A DNA stretch of 64,000 nucleotides from an uncultured Verrucomicrobiae bacterium (GCA_963719495.1 CAVRCI010000002.1:64001-128000), one strand, 5' to 3'. Positions 4,400-62,628 are shown, counted from the stretch's first letter. Made by a program: numbers and translations. The notes: generated from the letters alone by a model not told the origin.

Positions 4400-4900
4400 G
4401 TTCGACGCGCATCTGTTCAAACTACGCATATCGTGACTTCCTCAAGCCAACCCCTCCGTATCTCTACCGAAGGCACTCCAATAATGACGATCAAACCTTC
4501 GAAGAGGCTTCGCGATTGGAATCACTGAAATGCGATTGGAAGATTGTAGAGAGTAAAGGCTGAACTGGAGCGGGGGGCTTGGGATCAAGCTCACAAATAT
4601 ACGCCAGGAAGATTGTAGGGGGTAGAGGCTGAATTGGAATAGAGAGGGGGCATCAAGCTCACAAATAGAAGCTTGGAACGATTGTTGGGACATCTGGTGA
4701 CTTCCGAACGATTGGTCGAAAATCAAAATATTCTATCCGTTGAGAAACTGGGTTTGTTGCCTAGGCCCCGATCCTCCGTCCTGCGCTGGTCGAAAAAAAA
4801 GAACCCGACCGCTTGAAACAAGATGTGGTGTCCCCTGACGGCGTCCGAATATGTAAGAGCGAAATATAGTCATCCGCCGGAGGCTCACAATGAGTCGAAC
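4400..4900 (-). other. ORF-less cassette family A, copy 1 of 4
   Basis: Other copies 16331-16836 (diverged), 50932-51433, 60787-61287. Confidence 0.8.
4538..4686. repeat. ~68-69 bp tandem repeat inside family A cassette
   Basis: GGAAGATTGT-like starts at 4538, 4607, 4675; ATCAAGCTCACAAATA recurs in each full unit. Confidence 0.8.
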
Positions 4901-5015
4901 GTCAAGCTCAGCCACCCCGAGCGGGGCAACGAACGTCTAGGCAAGGTGTTTGCCGGAAGGGGATCGGTCGGCCAAGGCTTGCCTCAAGCCGGCTAGGGGT
5001 TGGCTGCAGCGCCTT

Positions 5016-5365
5016 GTTCGTCGGAAGAGGTGACTGCACGATGGAGGACCCGATCGTCCGACAGGCCGACGATGGTCAAACCCAGCAAGCGGCTTCGTTA
5101 GAGCATTCAGTAGAAGAGGCTTCTGTGGTCCAGATTGACTACACATTATAAATATATTGCTCGTGACAAGAGCAGGCCGGAACGGATTCTGGATGGATCT
5201 ACTCATGCCGCGTGAGCGCCCCAAGCGTGCATGGCAGGCGAATAATCGTTGGCGTCGAATCGGGAGTGATCAATAGAAAACCAGAATCGTGCTCAATCGT
5301 ATGCCGAAGGGAATCGAACAACTCTGAACCTTCCCTTGATCTCAACCCCAATAAATCAGGCGTAC
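5016..5365 (-). other. ORF-less cassette family C, copy 2
   Basis: Near-identical to 3320-3669. Confidence 0.85.
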
Positions 5366-5684
5366 GTCAAGCTCAGCCACTCTGAGCGGGCAACCAAGCC
5401 AACCCCACCGTGAGCTGCAAGAAGCGGGACTGAGCAACCCCAGCCAGCGAAGCGGCTAGGGGTTGGCTGCAGCGCCTTGTTCGGCTGTATCTGCTACATG
5501 AATAACTTCGCAATCGAATCTGGATCTTGTCGCAAATCCTGAATCGCCACAATTGCGATTCGGCGTCCTTCGATAGAATAGAAAATCCCATAAGGAAATT
5601 CCTTGATAAGGAGCCTTCGGTAAGGGCGACGGAATGGTGAGCCAAGGTTTGGAAACCGCCGCAAAAGAAGTGATGCCTCGTCTA

Positions 5685-6898
5685 GTATCCTGTAACGCGC
5701 TATATTGCGTATTGAGTCGCGCTCATCGGAGCGGTATGTGGGTGGATGGCAAATCGATACCGCATCACTTTAACCGAGTCCGAACGTGAGTATTTGAGCG
5801 CGCTGGGCCGGACTTCCAAAACCGACGCCAGGCGATATGTGCATGCTCGAACGCTTTTACTTTGCGACGTTGGCGAGCACGCGCCGAGTGGCGTAGCATG
5901 GAAGGTGGCGGATGTCGCCAGCGCTCTGGGAATCGGTGTTCGCACCGTCGAACACATCAAGGAGCGCTTCGTGGAGGATGGGTTGGAGGCAGCGCTTGGA
6001 CGCAAGCCGAGAACCGGTCCTCCGAGGATTACCTTCGATGGAGCCTTTGACGCGAGGGTGACCGCCTTGGCGTGCTCCGATCCTCCCGATGGACGCGCCC
6101 GGTGGACCGTCCGTCTTCTCGCCGACAAAGTCGTGGAACTCAAGATTGCCCCCAGCGTTTCGACGATGACCATTCAGCGGTCTCTAAAAAAAACGAATTA
6201 CGCCCTCATCTGAGCAAATATTGGAAGATCCCTCCAGACGGCAGCGCCGCTTTCGTTGCTTGCATGGAGGACGTTCTCGAACTCTATCACGCACCCTACG
6301 ATGCGCTCTTCCCCCTCGTCTGTATGGATGAGTCGAGCAAGCAACTCGTTGGCGAAGTCCAAGCGCCCATCGCTGGCGCTCCCGGTAGGGCGCGAATCGA
6401 AGACCATGAATACGTTCGCAACGGCGTGGCCGAAATCTTCCTCGAAGTCGAGCCGCTGGGCGGACGCAGACATCTGGAAATCACCGAGCGCCGCACCCGC
6501 ATCCAATGGGCTCAGTTCATTCGCAGCATGCTCGACGAACGCTATCCCCACGCGACCAAGGTGCGCTTGGTCATGGACAACCTCAATACGCACAACATCG
6601 CTTCGCTCTACGAAGCCTTCCCTCCCCAGGAAGCTCGCCGACTGGCCCAACGCCTTGAGATCCACTACACCCCAAAACATGGCAGTTGGCTCAATGTCGC
6701 CGAGATCGAGTTCAGTGTCCTTCAGTCCCAATGCCTGAATCGTCGCATTCCTAACATTGAAACGCTGCGCTCGGAAGTCGCGGCTTGGGAGGCCGCCCGG
6801 AACGAAGCCGCCCGCACCACTTCGTGGCGCTTCACCACCGCCGACGCGCGGGTCAAATTGAGACGGTTATATCCGCAGCTTTAGTCGTTACAGGATAC
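5685..6898 (+). mobile_element. IS630 family element
   Basis: Terminal IR GTATCCTGTAACG/CGTTACAGGATAC, TA duplication at a CTAG target. Confidence 0.95.
5746..6884 (+). CDS. IS630 transposase (orfA/orfB joined by -1 frameshift)
   Basis: HTH orfA 5746-6213; DDE orfB (CMDE, VMDNLNTH, SWLNVAEIE); A8 run at 6186-6193. Confidence 0.92.
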
Positions 6899-7005
6899 TA
6901 GACTCCGCAAGAATTCTGAGCCTCGTCCCTCCTGGATATCTTCATAGCGTTCAAATGCGGATTGAATGTCAATGTCGGCTTGGAGGAGGTAAATGACCTC
7001 GGATG

Positions 7006-7227
7006 TCATCGAGCTGACAGGAGGCGCGACTTGATCTCGTCCAGTGTGGTGAACTCATCTGGGTGCTTGTGATAATGGGCGAGCCGCCTATCCAGCTCTT
7101 CGATGATCGCTGGGGAGACCGGGATCTCCTCGGGATGGGATGCGACGTTCTCCCATAGCTCTGACATCAGCGTGAGCTGGTCGAGGACTGAAAGGCTTTT
7201 CAGGTCGGGAATGCGTTCCAGAATCAT
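7006..7227 (-). CDS. Addiction module antitoxin
   Basis: LS..DQL.L..ELWE...ELDRRL...pattern upstream of ParE. Confidence 0.85.
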   Translation of the reverse strand: MILERIPDLKSLSVLDQLTLMSELWENVASHPEEIPVSPAIIEELDRRLAHYHKHPDEFTTLDEIKSRLLSAR

Positions 7228-7233
7228 GGAATG

Positions 7234-7262
7234 AATATGCGAATGGCGATCAATCCAGTCAA
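7234..7262 (-). promoter_or_regulatory. sigma70-like promoter, predicted leaderless
   Basis: TTGACT-17-CATATT-6 nt-ATG. Confidence 0.7.
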
Positions 7263-7375
7263 GGCATTGAGTTCAGGAGCCGAACGTCAAGCTCAGTCAC
7301 CCTGAACGGGCAATCAAGCAAACCTTGAGGTGAGCTGCTAATAGCGGGACCGAGCAACCCCAGCCAGCGGAGCGG

Positions 7376-7727
7376 CTAGGGGTTGGCTGCAGCGCCTTGT
7401 TCGGCGTATCTTGGTGTATTCCGCTTCGGGGACATAAAGCAATATAGTATAGCACCTGGAAAATTCAGGAATACAATCAATCCGACCCAAAGCAGTCTGT
7501 CGGTGCTCGTCAAACTCGGATTGCGCAGTGCATGGGCTAATGTAATCACCCAAAGACATATTGCGCTCAACACAATAAATGCCCCAGCGACTTGAAAATA
7601 TCCGATCTGATAGGCTAAATCATTAACATTCGTTGATTCGTGCGAGTTGAAGTAAAAAAAATATCAGCAAAACAAATCCGACATGAAGAAGGAGTAAGCC
7701 TGCAATTGTAGTTCCTATGACTTTCAC
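7376..7727 (-). pseudogene. Frameshifted copy of PLDc_N-like membrane protein
   Basis: Near-identical to 20158-20508 but +1 nt at A-run 7654-7661. Confidence 0.8.
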
Positions 7728-7890
7728 GAGATTGCGTTTCGAAGTTAATGCGTATTTCAGAAAATTCCTAGCCGAACGTCAAGCTCAGCCACCCTGAGCG
7801 GGTGATAGAGCCAACCCTGAGGTGATCTGCCGGTAGCGGGAACGAGCAACCCCAGCCAGCGAAGCGGCTAGGGGTTGGCTGCAGCGCCTT

Positions 7891-8411
7891 GTTAGACTCG
7901 TATTTGTATTCTGATGCTACCGCCCATGGTGAAAGATCGATTTCGATTCACCAGATGCTTTCGAGTGGATTCCGAAATAATACGTGAACAGAAATTGATG
8001 TCAGCGTCAAAATTGGAATGAAGCAGTCTCGCGCGCCAGTGATTGGAAGCGATTGGGTGCATTCCGATTGAATGAATTCGGATTCCATTTTTAACGGGCC
8101 GAGGCAGTGAAAATTTGGTCGATTCGTTTGGCTGTCTTTTAATCGAGTTGTCCATCCAGACATTCGACAAGTGGCTTTCTCGTGATGGGAACCTAAAGTC
8201 TCAATACCCACTCCGTAAAAGTGCAGTTCTACGCAAATGCACCGTTTTCGGGTCGGAATCGAGGTGGTCAAAAATCACCAAAAAAAATTCGGGTGCTGCG
8301 CACCAAATATGACTCGTCTTCGCCTCGTTTGGGATTCGGGTTTCTCGTTGCAGGTGACAAAAAGGTAGGGGTCGCTCGTATTCAGCCCGCCGGAGGCTCA
8401 CGGAGTCTAAC
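7891..8411 (-). other. ORF-less cassette family B
   Basis: Related cassettes 17523-18043, 21137-21732, 43919-44310, more distantly 45729-46118; shared hairpin+T-tract motif. Confidence 0.75.
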
Positions 8412-8524
8412 GTCAAGCTCAGCCACCCTGAGCGGGCAATCGAGCTAACCCCATGGTGAGCTGCCAATAGGGGGACCGAACAACCCCAGCCAGCGAAGCG
8501 GCTAGGGGTTGGCTGCAGCGCCTT

Positions 8525-8806
8525 GTTCGGATCCGCCCGTTCGTGGTCCCGTCGGATCTACAATCTGCAGCCTTGCTCGTCGCCATGCCGCTTGATAATC
8601 GACCCATACTAGCTAGTCAGACCGATGCGCTGCACTATGAAAATTGACGTCGAATGGACTGCGAAAAAATACCTTGGTTTGGGCTTCCGCACACTCAAAT
8701 TAACCTCATTGTGAACACCTTCCGAATACGCCAATTTTATACAAAGCAAATTGCGAACGATCTTTTTTGCAAATTGGACTTTCAGAAACTGGGGCATAGG
8801 TCCGAC
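8525..8806 (-). other. Cassette family D (no conserved ORF), copy 1 of 4
   Basis: Other copies 23157-23439, 46686-46968, 58510-58792. Confidence 0.75.
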
Positions 8807-8921
8807 GCCAAGCTCAGCCACCCTGAGCGGAGGACCGAACTCTTGAAAGAGATGTAAACTGCCACCCGGAAGTCAGAACAACGGCGACCAATGATCGGCT
8901 AGGGGTTGGCTGCAGCGCCTT

Positions 8922-9315
8922 GGTCGTCGTGACGGGTCGTAGACACAACGGCCCGCCGTAGCATCCGACAGGGGCTGAACCGTGGAAGTCAGGAACAACG
9001 CGACCACGTGAACAGAGGCTCGAGCCAGACTGGTCGTGGCCATATCTTCTCGTGATGGTGAAATCGTAGCCGAAGCGAATGAATCAACGAAGTCACTGAA
9101 ACGGAAGCTCGACCCGGCTCTGCGGGTGGAGCGGCGAGACGCTGAACGGCGGAGGGAGATCGGAGAGCTGGAAGAGGGCGTCTGTGACGAGGGGAGTCGG
9201 CGGATGGAAGGGGACGGGGTCATCCAGTCGAATCCGCTCGTCACAGTCGCCCGGGTGAATCACCAGCTAATGTCCCTGAACCGAACTCAGTCATTATTTA
9301 TTGTATAAGGCGACC
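8922..9315 (-). other. Cassette family E with GGT/ACC core
   Basis: Ends GGTCGTC...GGCGACC on plus strand; relatives 13478-13759, 52731-53012, 63982-end. Confidence 0.75.
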
Positions 9316-9448
9316 GTCAAGCTCAGCCACCCCGAGCGGATGATCAAGCCAACCCTGGGGTGAGCTGCCAGTAGCGGGTCCGAGCAACCCCGGCCAGCGA
9401 AGCGGCTAGGGGTTGGCTGCAGCGCCTTGTTAGCCTGTATTTGTATTG

Positions 9449-9787
9449 TTATTGAAATGCATCTGCCGGCATAGGCGCTGGTTCAACGATATTCGCTGGC
9501 GGGGGAGTGTTGGGATCGGGGACTTTAAAGATACGATTTGTATAGGGGTCTCTGACTTCGGTTCCTACTGGAAAGCCTCTAACATCAATATAACCTTTTT
9601 CGGGAGCGTATGGGCTTTGAACGAATCCAGGTTTATTACCGACATTGGTTGCTGATTGAATCTGAGCCGCCTGCTTCATGTCGCTGGAATCCGGATTGGA
9701 GGCGTTACCGTCAACCTGATCGCCAACATTTTTCTCTGAGCAAGCGACCAATGATACAATTATAGCGGTTATGATGAGCTTTTTCAT
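9449..9787 (-). CDS. Lipoprotein
   Basis: MKKLII...LVAC lipobox; GFVQSPYAP...DVRGFP.GTEVRDPYT motif. Confidence 0.8.
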   Translation of the reverse strand: MKKLIITAIIVSLVACSEKNVGDQVDGNASNPDSSDMKQAAQIQSATNVGNKPGFVQSPYAPEKGYIDVRGFPVGTEVRDPYTNRIFKVPDPNTPPPANIVEPAPMPADAFQ

Positions 9788-9980
9788 TATTTTACGGTTA
9801 AATAGGCTAACGTCAAGCTCAGCCACCCTGAGCGGGCGACCAAGCCAACCCCACGGTGAGCTGCAGGTAGCGGGACCGAGCAACCCCAGCCAGCGAAGCG
9901 GCTAGGGGTTGGCTGCAGCGCCTTGTTAGGACTGTATTTCCACGTTTCCCGTTCATTGGAAAGTGCATTGGAACAGTCAC

Positions 9981-10406
9981 TTATTTGAAGTTGTCTGGAT
10001 TTTGAACATGGTCGATGGCTACCCCCTTCTTTTTGGAGCTTCTCTTTGAATAAGTGCAGATGCAAATTAGAAAAGATGCTACGCATGCCGCTTTCAGAAT
10101 AAGCAGCAAGATCGGCTGAAACCAAGCTCTCGTAAATACCTCGATAAAATCTGATAGTCCGAATAAAGCAAATGAGATCGTGCATGCCATCAATATGTCC
10201 TGATCTCCCCGACTCTTTTTGCGGTTATTGAGAAATGCAAAGGCGATCGCCAGCCAGAATACTCCTTCGATGAGATTGAATATCTGGTCTAATTCAAGTC
10301 GGGGTATTCGAATAGCGATAAATCCAAGAATCATTGAAGCGATTGCGACTCCCCATATTCCGAATTCCAAAAATGCGGTAGGGAATGCAGTGTATTGCTT
10401 CTTCAT
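9981..10406 (-). CDS. Membrane protein
   Basis: Four hydrophobic segments; ATG just after R' box. Confidence 0.75.
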   Translation of the reverse strand: MKKQYTAFPTAFLEFGIWGVAIASMILGFIAIRIPRLELDQIFNLIEGVFWLAIAFAFLNNRKKSRGDQDILMACTISFALFGLSDFIEVFTRAWFQPILLLILKAACVASFLICICTYSKRSSKKKGVAIDHVQNPDNFK

Positions 10407-10544
10407 GAGTCCTAACGTCAAGCTCAGCCACCCTGAGCGGGCAACCGAGCCAACCCCACGGTGAGCTGCCAAAAGCGGGGCCGAGCAACCCCAGCCAGCG
10501 AAGCGGCTAGGGGTTGGCTGCAGCGCCTTGTTAGGCACGTATTT

Positions 10545-10802
10545 TTAGAGCGGTGCGATGGGGAGCAGCGGCTTTTCCTGTCTCGCGCGGTTCCAGTCCT
10601 CACGCAATTCATCAAGATGTTGGATTCTCCATTCGTCGACGAGTTGAAGTGCCTTTTTTGGGAGGCTACCTTCGTAGATCAGTCCGGTCTCAATCTCGAT
10701 GAGTGCTTCGTGCTCACCGTAGATGGCATGAAAATGGGTTGGTGGGTGATCTCGGTAGTAGAAGCGAATCCGGATCCCGTAGAATCTGCTTACTTCAGGC
10801 AT
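10545..10802 (-). CDS. DUF4160 family protein (TA component)
   Basis: MPEVSRFYGIRIRFYYRDHPPTHFHAIYG...IAPL signature. Confidence 0.88.
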   Translation of the reverse strand: MPEVSRFYGIRIRFYYRDHPPTHFHAIYGEHEALIEIETGLIYEGSLPKKALQLVDEWRIQHLDELREDWNRARQEKPLLPIAPL

Positions 10803-11055
10803 GTTGCACTCCTGATGGAATTGCTCCTGTGATCTCCCGGTATGCAGCATCTGAGCATATCTCAAGATCCTCTGACCATGCGATCTGTCCGAACTCTGCG
10901 ATGTGAACTGTGTTGAAGAATGCCTGGTCTGATAATGAAGAAAATACTCCAGATCGAACAGATTCAGACATATCAATCTGCCCCGTCGTGCCATCGGGAT
11001 ACGAGACCTCAACCTTGTAGTCGGGAAGGGGAGTTACCTTGTAAGGCCTGTTCAT
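10795..11055 (-). CDS. DUF2442 family protein (TA component)
   Basis: V.PLPDYKVEVSYPDG...FSSLSD..FF..V......IAW...LEICSD. Confidence 0.85.
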   Translation of the reverse strand: MNRPYKVTPLPDYKVEVSYPDGTTGQIDMSESVRSGVFSSLSDQAFFNTVHIAEFGQIAWSEDLEICSDAAYREITGAIPSGVQHA

Positions 11056-11274
11056 GCGTCTATAAGGTTATACTGACCTTCCGCATTTGAGAAGCCAGAG
11101 TTTTTTCACGGATGATGGACGAACATGAATTGCATTTCTCATCCGTCGGAGACTGCCCAACGTCAAGCTCAGCCACCCTGAGCGGGTGATCGAGCCAACC
11201 CTGAGGTGAGCTGCCGGTAGCGGGACCGAGCAACCCCAGCCAGCGAAGCGGCTAGGGGTTGGCTGCAGCGCCTT

Positions 11275-11940
11275 GTTAGGCCCGAGGGCGATCTGCTGCC
11301 CAGAACAATCTTGATCTCCAATGAGCCAACCCCGGAACTGATCTGTGAAGCACATATTCTCATCGGCTGACGAAGATAGGAAACCTCAATTCTTACCAAA
11401 AAAAATTCGACCTGCGGTGCTTTCTCGTTTTGGAACCAATGAAGTTTTCGCCTGTCGGTGAATTGAGCTGCGAGCGGGTCGAAAGGGCAAGTCATCCGCC
11501 GGAGGCTATCTCGTGGGAGATGGGGTGGAATCGGAGGGATCAAACTACGCTAAATGGAGCCGATCTGGTCATGAATGGCTCTGCAGGCAAGAGCTGATGG
11601 GCGGTCTATCGAGCAAAGTGCAGCGTTGTCCGATTGCGAGGTCGTCATGGTCGCTGCTCTGAGCGGGCCATGATGACCGGTCGATCTACAAGGCATGAAT
11701 CTCCAACTTCCCAGAGTCAGGTGATCGAGCATCACCCGGACTTGCTCGAACAACAGGTGTATAGATTTGTGGGCGTCTTGGGCAGGTGATGCGAGCCGAT
11801 CTGGAGTGATCCGGGGGATGAGAGGGTGAAAGGGCTGTCCCTCCGGGTCAGCTCCCGATCGGCGGTCGAGACTCCTGAGAACTTCCGCCTCCCGATGTAT
11901 ATATATCTCATCCGCCGGAGGCTCACAGGTATGGCCGAAC
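11275..11940 (-). other. ORF-less cassette family G
   Basis: No convincing ORF; homologous to 42878-43267; two GGA-hairpin motifs and one hairpin+T-tract motif. Confidence 0.7.
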
Positions 11941-12067
11941 GTCAAGCTCAGCCACCCTGAGCGGGCAATCAAGCCAACCCTGAGGTGAGCTGCCAGTAGC
12001 GGGACCGAGCAACCCCAGTCAGCGAAGCGGCTAGGGGTTGGCTGCAGCGCCTTGTTAGCCCTGTATT

Positions 12068-12298
12068 TCAGGTATGCAGCAATTCTCGCGCATGGGGGAT
12101 CTCTTCGGACCGAGCCGACCGAATGTCTTCCGACGACACTGTCACGACTGAAGCTGTTCGTCCCGTCAGCGTCACGAACTCGACCTCGTATGCTTCACCA
12201 GATCCGTAAACGTGAACAACAGCCCCGATGTCCCCAATTTCAAGAGAATCAGTGGGAATGGGGCGGGTTAAAATTACCTGTTCGTGTTCTTGGATCAT
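12068..12298 (-). CDS. DUF4926 family protein
   Basis: MIQEHEQVIL...GDIGAVVHVY...YEVEF signature. Confidence 0.85.
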   Translation of the reverse strand: MIQEHEQVILTRPIPTDSLEIGDIGAVVHVYGSGEAYEVEFVTLTGRTASVVTVSSEDIRSARSEEIPHARELLHT

Positions 12299-12304
12299 GA
12301 TGTT

Positions 12305-12637
12305 CTATAGCGGATATGCTGTGACGAGTCTTGGGAAATCTGCGGCCACGTCGACAATCCAAACTGCTCTGATTGTTGGTGATCGACCGTCCGGGCAATT
12401 GAGTGGACCGTCAACTTGGTATTTTGAGCCGTAGGGAGATTCCGAAACTCCTGTTACCGAGTTGCTCATCGCGTGCGCAATCAACGACCCCGCAAGAATG
12501 TGCCAGTCGTCGACTGTGAATCCGAACGAAGCGAAAAAGATCGCCTTCCCGCGGCCTTCGGGATGGGACGTGGCGAGGAGATACTCTGTGACCTTATCCT
12601 TCTGGATTTGAGCGTTGGGGATGTTTGGTAAAGTCAC
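12305..12637 (-). CDS. DUF6883-like putative toxin
   Basis: KVTEYLL..HPEG.GKA.FF...GF...W....PRLVTAYP; paired with DUF4926. Confidence 0.8.
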   Translation of the reverse strand: MTLPNIPNAQIQKDKVTEYLLATSHPEGRGKAIFFASFGFTVDDWHILAGSLIAHAMSNSVTGVSESPYGSKYQVDGPLNCPDGRSPTIRAVWIVDVAADFPRLVTAYPL

Positions 12638-12812
12638 TACTGGGTTTTACTATCTGACGGCGCCGAGGGCGATCTCTTTAATGGGCTAACGTCAAGCTCA
12701 GCCACACTGAGCGGACAATCGAGCCAACCCCATGGTGAGCTGCCAATAGGGGGACCGAACAACCCCAGCCAGCGAAGCGGCTAGGGGTTGGCTGCAGCGC
12801 CTTGGTAGCTCT

Positions 12813-13094
12813 TTATTTATTCAGGCGACGCATGATCCGCTCGGGATCGGATCGAAGATCGATGATCGCCTGCACGAATATGCGATTCCCTTCAATGGTA
12901 TAAAAGATTCCGAATGGAGATTTTGGAATGAGTAATCGACGAAATGGCTCAGAGTAAATTGGGCCCGACTTCGGAAAGCGGCCGATCTGGGCGATGCGAT
13001 CTTCGAATGCGATGTAAAAGGTGTCTCCGCGATCCGAGTAGATCTCCAAGAATTCGATTTCGGCACCGAGAAGAAGTTCAACTGCGAACCCCAT
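12813..13094 (-). CDS. parE: ParE/RelE toxin
   Basis: FP.SG......RRLLI...PFGIFY.......VQAIIDLRSDP. Confidence 0.85.
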   Translation of the reverse strand: MGFAVELLLGAEIEFLEIYSDRGDTFYIAFEDRIAQIGRFPKSGPIYSEPFRRLLIPKSPFGIFYTIEGNRIFVQAIIDLRSDPERIMRRLNK

Positions 13095-53537: not shown

Positions 53538-53736
53538 TGTTGCTAATTGGAATTTAAGGTTTGAGTGAGCTTTGGCTTTGTTGAGGAGCGCGATCTCGAT
53601 CCACTTTTTCAGAGCCGAACGTCAAGCTCAGCCACCCTGAGCGGGGCAACGAACGTCTAGGCAAGGTGTTTGCTGGAAGGGGGATCGGTCGGCCAAGGCT
53701 TGCCTCAGGCCGGCTAGGGGTTGGCTGCAGCGCCTT

Positions 53737-54086: not shown

Positions 54087-54176
54087 GTCAAGCTCAGCCA
54101 CCCTGAGCGGGCAATCAAGCCAACCCCACGGCGAGCTGCCAATAGCGGGACCGAGCAACCCCAGCCAGCGAAGCGG

Positions 54177-54653
54177 CTAGGGGTTGGCTGCAGCGGCTTG
54201 TTCGGCTGTATTGATGCTCAATATCCGGTCGGCTTCAGTCCTCGAAATACCTCTCAGGAGCCCTATCTTCAAACCGTCCGCCTCAAGCGAAATATACCAA
54301 GCCTCTTCTCTCGTGGCGGTTATCCGATAGATCATTTGAGGCATGTGCTCCTGTGTTGTCCCATGCCAAAACAGAAGTGCGTCGTCGCATCGTCGATCTA
54401 GATACAGATTCAGGTTCTGTTCGCTTGTTCGGAGGCCATGAAGCAGGCTTTCAGGATTGACTGGCTTATACCCATTGCCAGATTTAATAAAATGATCTTC
54501 GGAAAGAATGCGGTTTGGATGGAATGGGGGGACGGTAAGTTGCAGTTTTCTGACGGCTACGGCGCCCATGAGCTTACCTGAAAAGTTTAGCCACTTCGCA
54601 TCGAACCATCCGTCGATACATATCCGAACGCAAAATACCTGGCTGATACGCAT
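54177..54653 (-). CDS. Hypothetical protein
   Basis: IDGWFD.KWL.FSG...VPPFHPNRI; start uncertain. Confidence 0.65.
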   Translation of the reverse strand: MRISQVFCVRICIDGWFDAKWLNFSGKLMGAVAVRKLQLTVPPFHPNRILSEDHFIKSGNGYKPVNPESLLHGLRTSEQNLNLYLDRRCDDALLFWHGTTQEHMPQMIYRITATREEAWYISLEADGLKIGLLRGISRTEADRILSINTAEQAAAANP

Positions 54654-54819
54654 CGGAGAGGCGCCGAAAGATGTGATTGGGTGAATGCATTTTATTCGAG
54701 CCGAACGTCAAGCTCAGCCACCCTGAACGGGTGATGAGGAACGACTGGTGATCAACTGCCGATGGCGGGTGGCACAACCCCAGCCAGCGGATTGGCTAGG
54801 GGTTGGCTGCAGCGCCTTG

Positions 54820-55710
54820 TTAGGGCTTATTGCCTTCTTCGGGAAGTTCGAGTTGAGAGTATCGAATCTTTTCTTTGACGTCGTAAACTTTAAGGACTTG
54901 ATAGCGATAACCGACGATTTCTCCTTCGGCAGTCTTGAGCAGTGTAATCTCGAGCAGTGCATCAATGGCGTCCCCAGATTTCAGCTCAATCGTGCGCTCA
55001 TGGAAATCTCGTAGCCATTCAGAATCTAGGATCTTTGCTCTGATCACTCTTCCCTGCATATAAAGATCCCATTGGGAATCACCGATCAAATCGGGTTTCT
55101 TGACAGGTAGGATAACGCGCGTCGGTTTGCTGACTGGGATGAGTTCGAGAAGCTCTTCTTCTAGCGAAGGAGAGATGCTGATCTCTTTCGAAATTGTTCG
55201 TCGAATACTTTCTGACGTGTAGATCGCCGAATCTTCTCGTATGAGCAAACGCGTAGATCGCTCGAAGGATTGTAGCGTCGCTAGAATACGATGAAGCGGA
55301 ACTGGGGCGGGGTGGGGGAGAAGCTGCGTAGGTGCCTTAGATGCAATCTCCAGCATTGCTCGTTGATAGTCTTCAAGTTGCTGCCGAGTCGTGATAGTCG
55401 GCTCCTCTTCGAGGTGCTTCAACAAGAAGTCTCTGCCGTCGTCGAGCATGCGTCCCAAGACCTTCTTCCAGTCTCCGTCGCGAAGTGCCTCCTTGTTTGG
55501 GGTATTCAAAATCCATCGGAATATGGCTTTAAGTGAACCTTTCTCAATATCGTGAAGAAGGGTTGTGGATGCTAATGGAAGATCAATTGAATCAAGGAGT
55601 TCGTTGTCAAAACGATCGAACGAGTCGATCAATCCAGCCATTGAGTGAAACACTCTTGCTGGATTTGGCGTGTCTGGAACGAAATCAATAGTTATGTCGT
55701 ATTGTTGCAT
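54820..55710 (-). CDS. Hypothetical protein (296 aa)
   Basis: Fills cassette; IEKGSLK, KKPDLIG..QW, I.D.EWL..F motifs. Confidence 0.8.
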   Translation of the reverse strand: MQQYDITIDFVPDTPNPARVFHSMAGLIDSFDRFDNELLDSIDLPLASTTLLHDIEKGSLKAIFRWILNTPNKEALRDGDWKKVLGRMLDDGRDFLLKHLEEEPTITTRQQLEDYQRAMLEIASKAPTQLLPHPAPVPLHRILATLQSFERSTRLLIREDSAIYTSESIRRTISKEISISPSLEEELLELIPVSKPTRVILPVKKPDLIGDSQWDLYMQGRVIRAKILDSEWLRDFHERTIELKSGDAIDALLEITLLKTAEGEIVGYRYQVLKVYDVKEKIRYSQLELPEEGNKP

Positions 55711-55852
55711 AATTGTATGGCCCTAACGTCAAGCTCAGCCACCCTGAGCGAATGACCGAGCCAACCCCGAGGTGAGCTGCCAATGGCGGCACCGAGCAAC
55801 CCCAGCCAGCGAAGCGGCTAGGGGTTGGCTGCAGCGCCTTGTTAGCTAGCAT

Positions 55853-56344
55853 TTATTTTTCTGAGATAAAAGCTTTGTAAACTTCAGAAGTTTCCTCAGG
55901 ACTAAGAATTGTTATAACTCCGGCATCGGAAATCTGATATACGTATTTTATCGAAGCCGAATTTCTGAGTAAACCAAAATACAGAATAATGTAGGAGTCT
56001 TTCGATATCTTCGGTAGGAAGGCCTCCAGAATGTAGATGTTGACCTCTTCTGAAGCAGTAATGTAGTCGTGTGAAATTTGTCGAACATTTGAAGTAACTA
56101 TTGATGATAGTATTATCTGACCATCGTAAAAAATACTCCATTGGCTGTAGTCGATCGGACTCTTCGATTCTTTCTCCGGAGTCCATGACCTTAAAAGAAT
56201 ATGTCCGTCTTTAATGATTGTTTCAACAGTAGCAGATTTACCATTTATTATAATGGTAGAGTTCGTGTTCTCAAAGGCAGAAAGCGAATGAGGAAGTAAC
56301 AAGAATGCTAAAATTGCTTGGATGATTGCGTGTTTCATATTCAT
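55853..56344 (-). CDS. Hypothetical secreted protein
   Basis: Signal peptide; AT-rich. Confidence 0.7.
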   Translation of the reverse strand: MNMKHAIIQAILAFLLLPHSLSAFENTNSTIIINGKSATVETIIKDGHILLRSWTPEKESKSPIDYSQWSIFYDGQIILSSIVTSNVRQISHDYITASEEVNIYILEAFLPKISKDSYIILYFGLLRNSASIKYVYQISDAGVITILSPEETSEVYKAFISEK

Positions 56345-56466
56345 AATAGCTAACGTCAAGCTCAGCCACCCTGAGCGGGCAATCGAGCCAACCCTGAGGT
56401 GAACTGCCAGTAGAGGGTCCGCGCAATCCCAGCCGCGAAGCGGCTAGGGGTTGGCTGCAGCGCCTT

Positions 56467-56848
56467 GTTCGGCTCTAACCGCACAAGCTACGAAGGGTGT
56501 TGCAATCACGATGCCAACCCCTCCTTGAATTTGACCGTATGCATTTTACTATTGGCCGTTCGGATAAGGGGGAATGCCGTAAACTAGATGAAACTGAGCA
56601 GCGTGTGGAATGAGATAAGACTGGAACCGCAGTCAAAAAGTGGGACCTGAGAATGACCAAAAGATTTCGCTTTCGCTTCGCGAAAGAATGCGGATGAAGG
56701 ACTGATGGTGGAATTTCGGTGATCCGTCGCCGATGGTTCATCTTCGGAGCACTGCTGGGCAACATCATATTTTATAGCTCCGTCAAGCGGTGTTGGGAGC
56801 GATCAACAAGTTGCTCAGACGATATCATCCGCCGGAGGCAAGCCGAAC
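56467..56848 (-). other. ORF-less cassette family F
   Basis: Homologous to 39121-39500. Confidence 0.75.
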
Positions 56849-56963
56849 GTCAAGCTCAGCCACCCTGAGCGGGGCGACGAAAGTCTAGGAAAGGTGTTTG
56901 CGGGAAGGGGATCGGTCGGCCAAGGCTTGCCTCGGGCCGGCTAGGGGTTGGCTGCAGCGCCTT

Positions 56964-57314
56964 GTTCGTCGGAAGAGGTGACTGCACAATGGAGGACTTG
57001 ATCGTCCGACAGGCCGACGATGGGTCAAACCCAGCAAGCGGCTTCGTTAGAGCATTCAGTAGAAGAGGCTTCTGTGGTCCAGATTGACTACGCATTATAA
57101 ATATATTGCTCGTGACAAGAGCAGGCCGGAACGGATTCTGGATGGATCTACTCATGCCGCGTGAGCGCCCCAAGCGTGCATGGCAGGCGAATAATCGTTG
57201 GCGTCGAATCGGGAGTGATCAATAAAAAACCAGAATCGTGCTCAATCGTATGACGAAGGGAACCGAACAACTCTGAACCTTCCCTTGATCTCAACCCCAA
57301 TAAATCAGGCGAAC
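56964..57314 (-). other. ORF-less cassette family C, copy 8
   Basis: Similar to 3320-3669, +1 nt. Confidence 0.85.
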
Positions 57315-57440
57315 GTCAAGCTCAGCCACCCTGAGCGGGTGATCGAGAAAACTTTGAGATGAACTGCCGGAAGCGGGACCGAGCAACCCCAGCCAGCGAA
57401 GCGGCTAGGGGTTGGCTGCAGCGCCTTGTTCGGCTGTATT

Positions 57441-57836
57441 TCATTCGAGGTGTGCGATGGTCCTCGAAAATTCGGGAAGTCCCAATTTGACAGAGACGAC
57501 AGAAAACTCGTGATCGGTGAGTGGTCCAACTACTGAATCTTCTGGGTTTGCATAGACGCAATCTTTGGATGTGTCTAAGTAGAAGAAATTTGTAACCGCG
57601 CGATTGTTGTTAGGATGCTGCTTTGCAACGATGTATTTTTGATTGTATCCGATGGAAAAGACCGTTTCAGGTATCCTTCCGATTGCTGAACCATCACCCG
57701 AGTCGTAGGAAACGTTCATCTGTGAATCTGTATCAACGGCGATCAATCGATATGGTCCGACGATCTCTTCATCATGCACGAACCCGCAGCCGACAAAGCA
57801 GAATGCCGTAATAAAATAGAGCGAAAGTCGAATCAT
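57441..57836 (-). CDS. Lipoprotein (DUF3997-like)
   Basis: FVGC lipobox; IP..V..IGYN..YIVAKQ...VVGPLT..EF. Confidence 0.72.
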   Translation of the reverse strand: MIRLSLYFITAFCFVGCGFVHDEEIVGPYRLIAVDTDSQMNVSYDSGDGSAIGRIPETVFSIGYNQKYIVAKQHPNNNRAVTNFFYLDTSKDCVYANPEDSVVGPLTDHEFSVVSVKLGLPEFSRTIAHLE

Positions 57837-58046
57837 TGGTATTTAGAGGACTCCGGTGACCGATAGCAGAAGAAGTGGCAATATTCTCATATTGCTCAGG
57901 AATATTTCATCCACCGGAGGTCGAGCCGAACGTCAAGCTCAGCCACCCTGAGCGGGGCAACGAACGTCTAGGCAAGGTGTTTGCGGGAAGGGGATCGTTC
58001 GGCCAAGGCTTGCCTCAAGCCGGCTAGGGGTTGGCTGCAGCGCCTT

Positions 58047-58396
58047 GTTCGTCGGAAGAGGTGACTGCACGATGGAGGACCCGATCGTCCGACAGGCCGA
58101 CGATGGTCAAACCCAGCAAGCGGCTTCGTTAGAGCATTCAGTAGAAGAGGCTTCTGTGGTCCAGATTGACTACGCATTATAAATATATTGCTCGTGACAA
58201 GAGCAGGCCGGAACGGATTCTGGATGGATCTACTCATGCCGCGTGAGCGCCCCAAGCGTGCATGGCAGGCGAATAATTCTTGGGGTCGAATCGGGAGTGA
58301 TCAATGAAAAACCAGAATCGTGCTCAATCGTATGCCGAAGGGAATCGAGCAACTCTGAACTTTCCCTTGATCTTAACTCCAATAAATCAGGCGAAC
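58047..58396 (-). other. ORF-less cassette family C, copy 9
   Basis: Similar to 3320-3669. Confidence 0.85.
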
Positions 58397-58509
58397 GTCA
58401 AGCTCAGCCACCCTGAGCGGGCATTCAAGCCAACCCTGAGGTGAGCTGCCGATAGCGGGACCGAGCAACCCCAGCCAGCGAAGCGGCTAGGGGTTGGCTG
58501 CAGCGCCTT

Positions 58510-58792
58510 GTTCGGATCCGCCCGTTCGTGGTCCCGTCGGATCTACAATTTGCAGCCTTGCTCGTCGCCATGCCGATTGATAATCGAGCCATACCAGCGA
58601 GTCAGACCGATGCGCTTCGCTACGAAAATTGACGTCGAATGGAATGCGCAAAAATACCTTGGTTTTGGCTTTCAGATACACAAATTCACCTCATTGTGGA
58701 CCCCTTCCGAATACGCCAATTTTATACAAAGCAAATTACGAACGAGCTTGCTTGCAGTTTGGGCTTCGAAGACCAGGGGCATAGGTCCGAAC
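58510..58792 (-). other. Cassette family D, copy 4
   Basis: Similar to 8525-8806. Confidence 0.7.
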
Positions 58793-58882
58793 GCCAAGCT
58801 CAGCCACCCTGAGCGGGTGACCGAGCCAACCCTGAGGTGAGCTGCCAGTAGCGGGACCGAGCAACCCCAGCCAGCGAAGCGG

Positions 58883-59398
58883 CTAGGGGTTGGCTGCAGC
58901 GCCTTGTTCGGCTGTATCTTTTATCGGCGCGGGCTCGATCTGAGAAAAAACATAAACAATCTTTCCGTCATTAATGACAGGTGCGGCGATGATATATCGA
59001 TTGTATTTGCCAAAGTGATTGATCGAAAATGCGGCATTAATTGCAGCTACTTGCTTTGGAGCTATTGCAATTGGTTGGTGCGACAATCGCGATGGAATCT
59101 GAAGAGTGATTTCATGTAATGCGTCTGTCTCATCGACTCCGTAAAGTCGAAATCCTCGATTTGGAATCGTTCGAAAATCTATTGTTCCTCTGGGATGCGA
59201 GATTGTCTTAAAATATACTGTTGCCGTCACAAAATCAGAATTCACTGATTGAAAATTGAGTGACACGTTGAATGAATGATCTGGAGGTCCCCACGTTAAA
59301 TGGGTCGGTTCCACATCGAGAATATAGTAGGGCTTATTTAGCGCGCTGGCGGCCGTTAAGAGGCACAAAGAGCAAAAGACTGAAATAGGTAGACGCAT
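58883..59398 (-). CDS. Hypothetical secreted protein
   Basis: Signal peptide ASA; fills cassette. Confidence 0.7.
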   Translation of the reverse strand: MRLPISVFCSLCLLTAASALNKPYYILDVEPTHLTWGPPDHSFNVSLNFQSVNSDFVTATVYFKTISHPRGTIDFRTIPNRGFRLYGVDETDALHEITLQIPSRLSHQPIAIAPKQVAAINAAFSINHFGKYNRYIIAAPVINDGKIVYVFSQIEPAPIKDTAEQGAAANP

Positions 59399-59544
59399 TT
59401 TTAAATGAGCCGAACGTCAAGCTCAGCCACCCTGAGCGGGCGACCGAGCCGACCCTGAGGTAAGCTGCCAGTAGCGGGACCGAGCAACCCCAGCCAGCGA
59501 AGCGGCTAGGGGTTGGCTGCAGCGCCTTGTTCGGTCGTATGATC

Positions 59545-59919
59545 TCACTTGATGGGCTCGCCGACGAATACCAAGCAATCGTTCGGATCACCAATGTGAA
59601 ACTCTGTCATGCCGTAATCGCGGTCATGTAGATCTCTTACCTTGTATTGGTCTCGGAAAGTTGAAACGTGCTCCCACAAATGATGAATGTCTACAACCTG
59701 AATATAAATCTCAGTGTGCCCTCGAACCGCATCCAATACTGACGAATCGGCTGCCTTCATCAGGTGGATTGAATGGGTATCTCGTTCAATAATCGAGTAG
59801 TCGGCTGATTTCATTGTGACCGTGAAACCGAGGATGTCGGTATAGAATGAAATAGATTGATCCATGTCGGCAACTGCGAGCATGGGGCTAATTCCTGTGA
59901 CCTTGAATTCAATATTCAT
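59545..59919 (-). CDS. VOC/glyoxalase/bleomycin-resistance family protein
   Basis: P.L.V.DM..SI.FY..ILGF...YGM.EF...DP. Confidence 0.9.
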   Translation of the reverse strand: MNIEFKVTGISPMLAVADMDQSISFYTDILGFTVTMKSADYSIIERDTHSIHLMKAADSSVLDAVRGHTEIYIQVVDIHHLWEHVSTFRDQYKVRDLHDRDYGMTEFHIGDPNDCLVFVGEPIK

Positions 59920-60096
59920 TTTGAGAACAGTTTAGTAACTGAGTATTGGAAGATTTTACGCGAATGAATTATGAATTTCATCCGCCGGAGGCTTCATGGA
60001 CCGAACGTCAAGCTCAGCCACCCTGAGCGGGCAAACAAGCCAACCCTGAGGTGAGCTGCCAATAGCGGGTCCGAGCAACCCCAGCCAGCGAAGCGG

Positions 60097-60657
60097 CTAG
60101 GGGTTGGCTGCAGCGCCTTGTTCGGCTGTATTGCGTTTCGAAGTAGTTTCTGGTTGAGCAAGTAGTGGCTCCAAGACAACTCTGAGATCATCAGGGTTGT
60201 AATGCTTGCTCTGGCGAATGTGTCTAATCGGAATCTGAGCGCCAGTCATGATCTCGTCGACTAATATATCTCGTTGCTGTCGGGATCTGAGTCTGTGGCT
60301 AGAATCGTCAAGTTCAATAACGGCGATGATGTCATAGGTGAGGCGATTACATATGACAAAATCCACGTGTTTCGAGGATATCTTGTTGAATGCTCGTATA
60401 TATTCTTTGTTTTTGTGTATTTTCGCTGGTTCCACAATGTCAGCGAGTCTGACCTTCCCTGTCACGGTGAAAGTCCGGGGAATCACTTGTCGAAGAACCT
60501 CAAGAAATTGCAGCTCAGGGGCTGTGTATAGGGACTGTCGAGAGACGTATCTGAAAGACGTTGATTGCGACCGAGCTGTATTGAGAGCCTTGGAAACAAA
60601 CTGAAGAATCAGTAGGATTGCAACGAGAGCGACAGTCCATGGAAGTATTTCACTCAT
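60097..60657 (-). CDS. DUF2726 domain protein
   Basis: KVRLADIV...KHVDFVIC...IELDDSSH...RD. Confidence 0.88.
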   Translation of the reverse strand: MSEILPWTVALVAILLILQFVSKALNTARSQSTSFRYVSRQSLYTAPELQFLEVLRQVIPRTFTVTGKVRLADIVEPAKIHKNKEYIRAFNKISSKHVDFVICNRLTYDIIAVIELDDSSHRLRSRQQRDILVDEIMTGAQIPIRHIRQSKHYNPDDLRVVLEPLLAQPETTSKRNTAEQGAAANP

Positions 60658-60786
60658 TGTATGAAAGCCGAACGTCAAGCTCAGCCACCCTGAGCGGGCA
60701 ATCAAGCCAACCCTGAGGTGAGCTGCCAATAGCGGGAACGAGCAAGCCCAGCCAGCGAAGCGGCTAGGGGTTGGCTGCAGCGCCTT

Positions 60787-61287
60787 GTTCGACGCGCATC
60801 TGTTCAATCTACGCATATCGTGACTTCCTCAAGCCAACCCCTCCGTATCTCTACCGAAGGCACTCCAATAATGAAGATCAAACCTTCGAAGAGGCTTCGT
60901 GATTGGAATCACTGAAATGCGATTGGAAGATTGTAGAGAGTAAAGGCTGAACTGGAGCGGGAGGCTTGGGATCAAGCTCACAAATATACGTCTGGAAGTT
61001 TGTAGGGGGTAGAGGCTTAATTGGAATAGAGAGGGGGCATCAAGCTCACAAATAGAAGCTTAAAACGATTGTTGGGACATCTGGTGACTTCCGAACGATT
61101 GGTCGAAAATCAAAATATTCTATCCGTTGAGAAACTGTGTTTGTTGCCTAGGCCCCGATCCTCCGTCCTACGCTAGTCAAAAAAATAGAACCCGACCGCT
61201 TGAAACAAGATGTGGTGTTCCCTGACGGCGTCCGAATATGTAAGAGCGAAATATAGTCATCCGCCGGAGGCTCACAATGAGTCGAAC
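60787..61287 (-). other. ORF-less cassette family A
   Basis: Similar to 4400-4900. Confidence 0.8.
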
Positions 61288-61412
61288 GTCAAGCTCAGCC
61301 ACCCTGAGCGGGCAACCAAGCCAACCCCACGGTGAGCTGCCGGAAGCGGGACCGAGCAACCCCAGCCAGCGAAGCGGCTAGGGGTTGGCTGCAGCGCCTT
61401 GTTCGGCCCTCA

Positions 61413-61820
61413 TTATAGAATTCGAAACCTTTGCTTCGTATTCTCTGGCCAACCATGAAAAATCGAAATCATTTGAACGGCGTAGAAGCTTCTGATGATA
61501 CAGATCTGGAATGGGGACTCACCGGATCTGTAGACGACTAAAACCCCATCTTTTCTAAGTGATAGAATTGCAGACTCATCCTCTTGAAAATTTACGGAAA
61601 ATGATGTGCCGTCCTTCCGGTAGACTTGAATAGTTGGAGGATTAGCCGTAAAGGAAACATGTCCGGAGCGAAATCCTTCGAAAAGCCCGTAGTAGATGGA
61701 TAGTGAGTTATCGTCAGTTAACTCGAACTTCAGTGGGATGAGATACTGTCCGCGATCCTGAATGGACTCTTTGTAATAGAGTCCGCAGACGAGCGGGAAC
61801 AAGAAATGGCGTCTAGACAT
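61413..61820 (-). CDS. Hypothetical protein
   Basis: Fills cassette. Confidence 0.6.
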   Translation of the reverse strand: MSRRHFLFPLVCGLYYKESIQDRGQYLIPLKFELTDDNSLSIYYGLFEGFRSGHVSFTANPPTIQVYRKDGTSFSVNFQEDESAILSLRKDGVLVVYRSGESPFQICIIRSFYAVQMISIFHGWPENTKQRFRIL

Positions 61821-61967
61821 GAATATTTGGCCGAACGTCAAGCTCAGCCACCCTGAGCGGGTGAACGAGCCAACCCTGAGGTGAGCTGCCAATAGAAGGT
61901 CCGAGCAACCCCAGCCAGCGAAGCGGCTAGGGGTTGGCTGCAGCGCCTTGTTCGGCTGTATCGCATT

Positions 61968-62360
61968 TTAGTTTCGATGGCTCAGTCCGGGGACTCTAAA
62001 TTCTTGAAGGCACTTCTCGCAGCGGTGGACTCTCCAGCTTGCCGACTCAATCTCGATATATCGGGGAAGCTCGGAAAGCCGGTGCATGCAAACAGGGCAG
62101 TTGGGAACAGCGAGAACTGCTCGATATATGAGATACCCGACAAGCCAAACAGATAATCCGATAGCCGCGACCACCAGACAAGCGTTCGCCCAGTGATTGT
62201 CCTGAAGATGGTTACTAAAAGTCGGTCCTGCCATGATTATCACTATGACAATCGCAAAAATAGCAAGTGATTTAGCAAATGTCTCTCGATGGAATCCGGA
62301 GACTTCACGTGGTAACTCTTTATCTTCAAGCATTGTGGAAGTTGATGGGCTTGGGTTCAT
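61968..62360 (-). CDS. Two-TM protein with C-terminal Zn ribbon
   Basis: CPVC...CEKC after two hydrophobic helices. Confidence 0.7.
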   Translation of the reverse strand: MNPSPSTSTMLEDKELPREVSGFHRETFAKSLAIFAIVIVIIMAGPTFSNHLQDNHWANACLVVAAIGLSVWLVGYLIYRAVLAVPNCPVCMHRLSELPRYIEIESASWRVHRCEKCLQEFRVPGLSHRN

Positions 62361-62628
62361 GTCAGTCTCGAAAAGACAGAGTTGGTAATCGAACAACGAA
62401 CTCGACTGGAGACAAATTGGACGATCCGAAGAGGTCCTGGGTCATGCAGCAAGTTGCTCAGAAATATCATCCACCGGAGGTCGAGCCGAACGTCAAGCTC
62501 AGCCACCCTGAGCGGGCAACCAAGCCAACCCAACGGTGAACTGCCGGAAGCGGGAACGAGCAACCCCAGCCAGCGAAGCGGCTAGGGGTTGGCTGCAGCG
62601 CCTTGTTAGCCCTGTATTGAATTTGTTC

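Follow-up and report, generated by a model that had tools for sequence, protein, structure and literature searches.

A strand-specific mini-hairpin tag at the 5' end of integron cassettes in a genus of uncultured Verrucomicrobiae

Introduction

In the current model an integron cassette requires its attC site alone, and the origin of cassettes, the role of gene-less cassettes and the stability of huge arrays remain open. Sedentary chromosomal integrons, as described in the accessible text of two reports (PMC5371416, PMC11023631), comprise an intI gene, an attI region, hundreds of cassettes whose attC sites are homogeneous, toxin-antitoxin (TA) cassettes and insertion sequence (IS) insertions, all of which recur in the array studied here. 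In this work we analysed a 64,000-nucleotide stretch of that array (hereafter the window; GCA_963719495.1, CAVRCI010000002.1:64001-128000, which is G000:C2:64001-128000 in our coordinates) from an uncultured Verrucomicrobiae bacterium, focusing on a short word, TCATCC-RYC-GGA-GRY-(T), that stands at the 5' end of many cassettes and is read on the plus strand, i.e., the attC bottom strand. This word, here called the tag, is a real, selected, genus-wide cis element of integron cassettes.

According to the accessible part of the survey by Loot et al. (PMC5371416), 25 of 30 chromosomal integrons have the orientation opposite to one that has the attC bottom strand as lagging-strand template, and arrays in the latter orientation never exceeded 22 cassettes; in Vibrio, inversion of the array increases excision (PMC11023631, accessible text). 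Large arrays have thus been reported with the bottom strand on the leading-strand template, whereas in the six genomes considered here it appears to be the template of the lagging strand in every case, which is a new context for giant arrays. Another point of comparison is the Vibrionaceae superintegron, likewise a large chromosomal integron with abundant gene-less cassettes that may have a role in expression; the accessible text of that study mentions no shared motif or hairpin (PMC11014356), whereas here one word recurs in gene-less and coding cassettes, with no sigma70 signal.

With regard to the hairpin itself, GNA mini-hairpins are described at the G4 origin, at RSF1010 ssiA and in N4 promoters, with weak binding by SSB, the protein that binds single-stranded DNA (PMC13037366, in its accessible part, as for the following comparisons). 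The G4 and RSF1010 single-strand initiation (ssi) sites resemble the tag in having a template-strand mini-hairpin with proposed SSB resistance, an adjoining conserved single-stranded stretch and a fixed orientation, but they span at least 40 nt, are single-copy, belong to a phage or a plasmid and have a known primase, whereas the tag is a 16-nt word, repeated and chromosomal, for which no dedicated primase was found. The promoter of the N4 virion RNA polymerase shares the C-GGA-G loop and a stem that is free if paired and, on the reading proposed below, would also share a protein-read centre G and a template-strand hairpin upstream of the start (PMC4496689, PMC13037366); it differs in its 5-7 bp stem, its heptamer GCGGAGC/GCGAAGC and its -8G contact, where the tag has C or T, and the tag, with a 3-bp stem and YCGGAGR, falls outside that class. 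The tag belongs to no known family among those tested, and no such word in integron cassettes was found in the accessible text of the literature searched, which lay mostly outside subscription journals.

Results

Occurrence and position of the tag in the window

The array extends over 27.4-175 kb of C2 with about 200 attC (198 paired), those of the window being 116-122 nt long, and adjoins an intact intI gene at C2:176417, outside the window (TIGR02249, 425.6 bits, above cut-off); with intI next to attC-bounded cassettes, it is a sedentary chromosomal integron. The 15-mer TCATCCRYCGGAGRY occurs 18 times on the plus strand of the window and never on the minus strand, with an expectation of 0.00 (100 shuffles), and the bare 9-mer of stem and loop occurs 27 times, 25 of them on the plus strand, against an expected 9.5 +/- 2.6. 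Copies at a cassette 5' end, with a gap of 1-21 nt to the R' box, were found in 19 of the 92 window cassettes, representing 13 sequence families (Table 1).

An earlier note on this DNA, made from the sequence alone, had listed 22 such 9-mers as marking the 5' end of about 20 unrelated cassettes. All 22 are present at their plus-strand coordinates, and 19 do stand at cassette 5' ends, in 13 rather than about 20 families; two are internal second copies (11498 and 44182, at 427 and 113 nt from R'), three have variant feet (TCAGCCC at 8389, TCATTCC at 18021 and 48516), and the 9-mer at 42879, which has no TCATCC-like foot and lies 373 nt from the R' box, is probably due to chance, as is one at 40223 that had not been listed. 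Cassette parsing confirmed that the motif is present in gene-less as well as in unrelated coding cassettes; the commonest gene-less families of the genome (347 bp and 280 bp) do not carry it.

Table 1. Tag sites and associated features, in window coordinates. ORF, open reading frame.
Feature	Coordinates	Strand	Remarks
Sedentary chromosomal integron array	1..64000	-	Part of ~200 cassettes; 92 attC in window; cassettes read on -, + is attC bottom strand
Example attC (bottom strand)	4898..5018	+	Own GC-GAA-GC apical mini-hairpin; R' box adjoins tag at 4870
Tag, GC stem	4870..4884	+	5' end of gene-less family 9
Tag variant	8382..8397	+	TCAGCCC foot; family 21
Tag, GT/AC stem	11139..11153	+	DUF4160 ORF cassette with long leader
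Tag	11492..11506	+	Internal second copy; gene-less family 11
Tag	11908..11922	+	5' copy; gene-less family 11
Tag, AC/GT stem	16193..16207	+	Cassette interrupted by DDE transposase gene
Tag	16806..16820	+	Family 9
Tag variant	18014..18029	+	TCATTCC foot; family 21
Probable decayed tag	20043..20057	+	Cassette 5' end; by eye
Decayed tag	21700..21714	+	One stem base lost; family 21
Probable decayed tag	31592..31606	+	Coding cassette 5' end
Tag, AC/GT stem	38984..38998	+	137-aa ORF begins at ATG within tag
Tag	39476..39490	+	Gene-less family 19
Tag	43237..43251	+	Gene-less cassette interrupted by transposase gene
Tag, AC/GT stem	44176..44190	+	Internal second copy, 92 nt from first; family 10
Tag, AC/GT stem	44268..44282	+	5' copy; gene-less family 10
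Tag variant	48509..48524	+	TCATTCC foot; coding cassette
Tag	51403..51417	+	Family 9
Tag, AC/GT stem	52591..52605	+	Cassette is duplicate of that at 38984
Tag	56825..56839	+	Family 19
Tag, AC/GT stem	57907..57921	+	Coding cassette, long leader; second box CTGAGCAA
Tag	59978..59992	+	Glyoxalase-family cassette, long leader
Tag	61257..61271	+	Family 9
Tag, AC/GT stem	62467..62481	+	Coding cassette, long leader
GGGGTTGGC block	39124-39500, 56470-56848		Family 19; also in families 1, 16, 44, 399, 441
347-bp gene-less cassette copies	3323-3669, 5019-5365, 20677-21023, 24837-25183, 32471-32817, 39620-39966, 53740-54086, 56967-57314, 58050-58396		

Covariation and selection

Parsing of the array regions of the genus, rather than whole genomes, yielded 1131 cassettes, 328 of which carry the tag, in 258 cases within 40 nt of the 5' end. 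On the bottom strand, the consensus of 91 dereplicated sites reads A/T-rich - TCATCC - RYC - GGA - GRY - T, with the T after the stem in 71 of them and information of at most 0.15 bits past six A/T-rich bases. Among sites with the exact foot, 297 of 301 are paired (GC 181, AT 68, AC/GT 46, GT/AC 2), and a pairing-agnostic scan found both outer pairs matched in 119 of 125 dereplicated sites, compared with 49% under independence. The tag has the C-GNA-G core and paired stem of d(GNA) triloops, and its loop is GGA in 297 of 298 sites while the apex loop of attC varies (GAA 343, GGA 24), which argues that the centre base is read and not merely stable. All 299 exact array copies are oriented as the nearest attC, inverted segments included, so that the linkage to the attC bottom strand proposed earlier is strict.

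Within nine multi-copy families, stem and loop diverged by 0-0.08 per site, compared with 0.02-0.19 elsewhere, being lower at all 13 sites, and the foot also diverged less than the rest at 12 of the 13; divergence immediately downstream of the tag exceeded the family mean at 9 of the 13, which is not decisive. The two compensatory pair changes first seen in the window thus reflect selection on stem pairing: a fourth type, ATC-GGA-GAT, was found outside the window, and uncompensated stem changes, named at the outset as grounds for doubt, are rare in the larger alignments. Such uncompensated transitions gave a bottom-strand G-T five times and a top-strand one once, at equal background rates, a weak bias (p=0.11). 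Since one head type (position 11) supplies 26 of the 72 5' families, and 15 of the 72 leaders share a second box described below, the sites are not independent; the tag was found behind 46 distinct heads, and differing stem types coexist inside single cassettes.

Larger structures were not found: no downstream partner for the GGATGA half was detected (5.4 vs 5.1 bp), RNAalifold gave no convincing covarying fold in 10 gene-less families on either strand, so a longer RNA structure was rejected, Rfam gave no match at gathering over the window and none at E<=1 over 4300-18100, and pairing between the foot and the 3' end of the same cassette was not supported (CATCC in 5/70 vs 13/481, p=0.07).

Distribution across genomes

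In G000, 31 of the 33 tag sites (TCATTCC variant counted) lie in the C2 array, and the other two are found on C7, within a small cluster of cassettes, and on C11, beside a repetitive extragenic palindrome (REP)-like repeat; the bare 9-mer has 363 sites elsewhere in that genome, with no common context. The copies therefore lie almost entirely in the array and in one orientation, rather than scattered genome-wide in random orientation as the earlier note had considered possible. Among 41 genomes compared (a tally that includes G016, which lacks the tag and on which no conclusion rests), the six of the genus hold 31, 36, 68, 10, 69 and 88 copies, and the other 35 hold none (33 genomes) or one (2 genomes). 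Sites of the same attC type number 61-390 in the same six genomes and at most 13 in other genera; because the same six genomes hold both, the tag and the giant arrays share one range.

A scan of 185,579 genomes for the tag together with an attC start retrieved 33 loci, 31 of them in uncultured Verrucomicrobiae, one in a contig titled Woeseiaceae and one a chance match. The Woeseiaceae-titled contig (L137; 3.4 kb) has the same attC end plus tag, cut by an IS, and reflects either cross-phylum transfer or misbinning. A viral scan with the GC-stem variant gave 62 matches, all single-copy and none adjoining attC on visual inspection, and a phage origin of the tag was rejected on these grounds; four matches in a metagenome scan were likewise none of them near attC.

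An internal stop interrupts intI in G001 and in one of the copies of G004, and G003 has no intI that scored above cut-off. IntI (L001:787-2433) has an N-terminal extension of about 230 aa that is kept across the genus and is similar to a second SAM-like integrase domain known from many phyla. Among the unannotated ORFs of at least 120 aa flanking intI, no small protein shared between genomes emerged as a candidate reader.

Orientation relative to replication

GC skew is positive along the whole length of C2, and the six specific markers (rpsL, fusA, rpoB, rpoC, tuf and 16S) are all read on the G-rich strand, five unspecific rpL14 pattern matches having been discarded before the count. By the usual rule, the G-rich strand determined in this way would be the lagging-strand template. 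Flanking sequences place the bottom strand of the main array on the G-rich strand in six of six genomes, with short inverted segments in G000 and G001. From GC skew we infer that the attC bottom strand of these giant arrays (61-390 attC) is the lagging-strand template, which would give a reason for that strand being single-stranded. The dnaA match lies on the C-rich strand; the dnaA-dnaN locus (G000:C13 403,253) is in a region where the skew is steadily negative, some 250 kb away from its switch.

Cassettes that carry the tag

The tag is present in 10 of 19 gene-less multi-copy families and in 38 of 364 coding families (p=1.5e-5), the 19 having been hand-picked from the 24 largest, TA families excluded; this enrichment would fit a selfish retention trick. 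In tagged coding cassettes the ORF starts later (median 74 vs 18 nt, p=2.5e-6; at least 55 nt in 21/33 tagged vs 77/339 untagged). Homologous proteins exist both with and without a tagged leader, and the same tagged head is joined to unrelated genes. A second box, CTGAGYAAC, lies 3-7 nt after the tag on the top strand in 15 of 72 tagged leaders, compared with 13 of 475 controls (e.g., 57890-57921); where the gap is 7 nt, its TGA terminates a 4-codon mini-ORF begun at the ATG of the tag. In G005 (C16, family 150), a second cassette head (GTTCGGC...) closes the tagged leader directly before the ATG, which looks as though a head with the tag had become joined to an ordinary cassette.

A Pfam scan of 86 of the 104 window ORFs (those omitted being mostly duplicates) plus IntI revealed TA systems, GNATs, transposases and many unknowns, with DUF4160 and glyoxalase genes among the tagged cassettes. 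TA cassettes such as that at 48656-49328 appear, by eye, to have sigma70-like -35/-10 boxes whose end is some 7 nt from the ATG that follows, so that their mRNAs may be leaderless. In several gene-less families the block GGGGTTGGC, which is complementary to the L'' arm of attC, stands some 55 nt ahead of R''. Predicted pairing of the R box fell from 0.89-0.99 in attC taken alone to 0.18-0.64 with flanks included (mean of coding controls 0.83), and two families without the block showed a drop too.

Other cassettes of the array

The untagged 347-bp gene-less cassette occurs nine times in the window and 28-29 times in G000, one copy being the first of the array, adjoining attI; the amplified gene-less families differ from genome to genome. 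Four cassettes are long (5482-7285, 14514-16217, 35748-37756 and 40772-43267). Three have plus-strand transposase ORFs, namely DDE_3 (6264-6881), DDE_Tnp_1 (14636-15811) and a DruA/Mom-like + DDE_Tnp_1_assoc fusion (41235-42398); in the fourth, a GNAT gene is truncated by an insert of about 1.5 kb, an end of which recurs at the window start.

Discussion

A single-strand start signal as the favoured reading

The covariation of the outer pairs, the constancy of the loop centre and of the foot, and the use of a single strand together point to a small ssDNA (single-stranded DNA) hairpin read by a protein, and we lean towards some signal read at the ssDNA level. The earlier proposal of an ssDNA recognition signal is thus upheld as the best class of explanation, given the selection on the stem, the GGA loop and the strand, its reader and function being putative; of the roles then suggested, priming would have the best geometric fit. 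Our favoured reading, tentative at a probability of roughly 0.35, is that the tag is a protein-read single-strand start signal that primes the top strand into the cassette and thereby limits excision.

The bottom strand would become single-stranded at the fork, as lagging-strand template, or in an excised cassette circle. There the tag could fold into a 3-bp stem with a C-G closing pair and a GGA triloop, in which the loop, the TCATCC foot, the 3' T and the A/T-rich stretch 5' of the foot would be read as sequence and the two outer pairs would need pairing alone. A host priming polymerase, either the DnaG primosome or RNA polymerase, might bind the hairpin, travel along the bottom strand in the 3'-5' direction and begin the top strand at GGATGA or just beyond it, into the cassette. 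With a fork that unwinds the attC of the cassette itself first and that of its neighbour last, priming at the tag would render the cassette double-stranded, along with its attC, while the neighbouring attC is being unwound; the two attC would then seldom be folded at one time, and excision of a tagged cassette would be rarer. A sense transcript could likewise arise from this start. As at ssi sites, the tag has a fixed orientation on the strand expected to become single-stranded (bottom strand in 299/299 copies, probably the lagging-strand template).

Several observations weigh against this reading. For primase and primosome, the search for a reader covered dnaG, priA and Prim-Pol and found one dnaG in four of five genomes (G005 has a second, weak match), priA in four of five and no Prim-Pol in any of the five. 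Host primase normally requires only a triplet. Priming leaves unexplained the long leaders and the second copies 68-142 nt away, and the most amplified family of G000 (29 copies, gene-less) has no tag. Tagged coding cassettes are not shared more between genomes (5/37 vs 31/318, p=0.56), nor do they lie further from attI in four arrays (p=0.17-0.86). The array orientation may be tolerated for other reasons, such as the many TA cassettes or the state of intI in some genomes (internal stop, or none above cut-off). Finally, folding with nearest-neighbour DNA parameters yields just -0.3 to -1.5 kcal/mol for the hairpin in isolation and does not predict the GT/AC type; standard parameters are reported to understate the stability of mini-hairpins (PMC13037366, accessible text). 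As to other readers, a reverse transcriptase (diversity-generating retroelement or group II intron) was rejected, no gene being found in G000, G001 or G004 and matches only in G002 and G005, and a search for single-subunit RNA polymerase (PF00940) gave no match in five genomes but none in the controls either, and is uninformative.

Competing explanations

We consider it unlikely that a Y1 transposase binds foot and hairpin on the single bottom strand, cuts and joins nearby DNA, and so builds or remodels cassettes, an option close to the HUH/REP-like processing of the earlier note. REPs with TnpA(REP) (RAYT) and IS200/IS605 ends share with the tag a conserved foot 5' of a hairpin, strand specificity, required loop bases and, probably, lagging-template exposure (PMC8266576 and bioRxiv 10.1101/279083, accessible parts), and they differ in that the tag has no GTAG-type foot, a very short stem, no inverted pairs, a confinement to cassettes and no tnpA seen linked to it. 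Y1 genes are indeed present, with 12 in G000 and 5-19 in four relatives; one G000 REP has a GNA mini-hairpin within 35 nt of 23 of its 112 copies, compared with 0 of 112 control windows, two REP-adjacent hairpins (C6 and C11) have the TCATCC foot, and ATCCC-GRA-GGGAT repeats flank a short Y1 gene (G000:C13 356,500-357,400; signature Y---Q--HH). GNA triloops occur in further REP-like families of the chromosome too. The fusion of identical tagged heads to unrelated genes likewise speaks for this reading. Conversely, the foot is ATCC, and not GTAG/GTGG (nor CnGA), the stem has 3 bp instead of 5-8 or more, inverted pairs never occur, and 31 of 33 sites, in one orientation, lie in the array, so that membership among REPs/REPtrons was rejected. 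The tag was absent from the flanks of the five Y1 genes examined among the 12, its nearest chromosomal copy to any Y1 gene lies 3.9 kb away, the short REP-flanked Y1 type is missing from the top matches of G001, G002 and G004, and outside the array no enrichment of the 12-mer was seen (10 paired vs 15 unpaired sites).

A double-stranded operator or promoter seems improbable as well. Here a dimeric regulator or alternative sigma factor would bind the dyad CnTCC-N3-GGAnG, TG-n-WATATT would serve as an extended -10, and the ORF 40-60 nt downstream, or RNA from gene-less cassettes, would be driven from there. The long leaders of tagged coding cassettes speak for it, as do the near-invariant and complementary TCC and GGA, with a perfect CCTCC-N3-GGAGG in one family, the rarity of the tag in two widespread TA protein families (at most 1 of 19 cassettes in each) and the promoters carried by gene-less Vibrio cassettes (PMC11014356, accessible text). 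However, such a site does not need the outer-base covariation, no conserved element stands at a fixed distance past +21, and the two near-exact sites outside cassettes make no regulon. A sigma70 promoter cassette was rejected in particular, the -35/-10 scores of the leaders (3.6 and 4.3 on the two strands) equalling those of shuffles (4.0 and 4.2), by a matrix of modest power that gave the TA positive control only 4.1-9.4.

Also improbable, in our judgement, is a translation element on the top-strand mRNA, in which the hairpin followed by GG-AUG-A would be a start or stop-restart point carrying ribosomes past attC. Of 91 sites, 79 have an ATG, with A/T-rich codons after it as at real starts, 13 sites have the 4-codon mini-ORF, one with TAA replacing TGA, several main ORFs begin at the tag ATG, and the largest family has a GGAGGA resembling a Shine-Dalgarno (SD) sequence. 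Against this, the ATG is missing from the other 12 sites, a 76-member family included, the mini-ORFs range over 2-137 codons with no conserved peptide, and position modulo 3 is even over the 46 distinct heads (18/17/11), for which a reading-frame link to attC was rejected. Moreover, a top-strand G-U pair is fixed in no lineage, the AT/AT type stem is not predicted as RNA, and the hairpin has no downstream pairing partner.

Similarly doubtful is a bottom-strand accessory site for IntI or another host ssDNA-binding factor, which would tune attC recombination up or down with no synthesis. It would fit the 1-21 nt spacing of most copies from the R' box on the recombined strand, the slightly more stable attC of tagged cassettes (-27.5 vs -26.0 kcal/mol, p=0.004), the L''-complementary block of several tagged gene-less families and the N-terminal extension of IntI. 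That extension, however, is like a domain present in many phyla, the distance of internal copies to any R' box is 100-430 nt, and about three quarters of cassettes have no tag.

Very little speaks for readings on the antisense strand, either an ops-like pause or recruitment site for an RfaH-like NusG paralogue or a CsrA site or SD on antisense RNA. Such a paralogue exists in G000 and most relatives, the bottom strand has a purine at -10 and a pyrimidine after the stem (83/91), and ops itself uses a non-template DNA hairpin (PMC11685472, accessible text). The G at +1 is, however, not kept outside one head lineage (11/36, 5/19), so that the G-10 Y-1 G+1 consensus of ops/opsX fails at G+1 and membership was rejected, the tag strand being antisense to the cassettes; the paralogue is widespread in the family and bears no link to the array, and the antisense transcription required found no promoter in our scan. 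In G000 it is a stand-alone gene (C13 409,567-410,169) that lies, by eye, between a TA pair and a secA-like gene, and it occurs in most genomes of the family. Of the two alternatives offered in the earlier note, CsrA is unlikely, csrA being found in none of the five genomes searched (79-99% complete; controls detected, 3/14), and an antisense SD is disfavoured by two stem types that shorten GGAGG to GGAGA and by many copies that, by eye, have no start codon behind. The notion of a neutral scar of cassette making, copied from few founder heads, is highly improbable: the dominant head type, the shared second box and the leader ending in a second cassette head would suit it, but within families the tag is far better conserved than the sequence around it, and 46 distinct heads and internal copies of different stem types in one cassette oppose it.

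Meaning for the integron

The tag constitutes a second cis element of the cassette, conserved, selected and strand-specific, carried by about a quarter of the cassettes of the genus and amenable to mutation. It co-occurs with giant arrays in a supposedly destructive orientation, which makes the question of array stability directly testable. A more far-reaching version, which we hold to be rather doubtful, is that cassettes carry their own priming signal, closing the ssDNA window before both attC fold, in lagging-template arrays of up to about 390 cassettes. If true, it would be an anti-excision device at the level of the cassette, outside attC and independent of toxin-antitoxin systems, and the same signal could make excised single-stranded circles double-stranded, or transcribable. 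Should the tag instead be a promoter or a processing site, it would still offer a handle on the expression or the genesis of cassettes.

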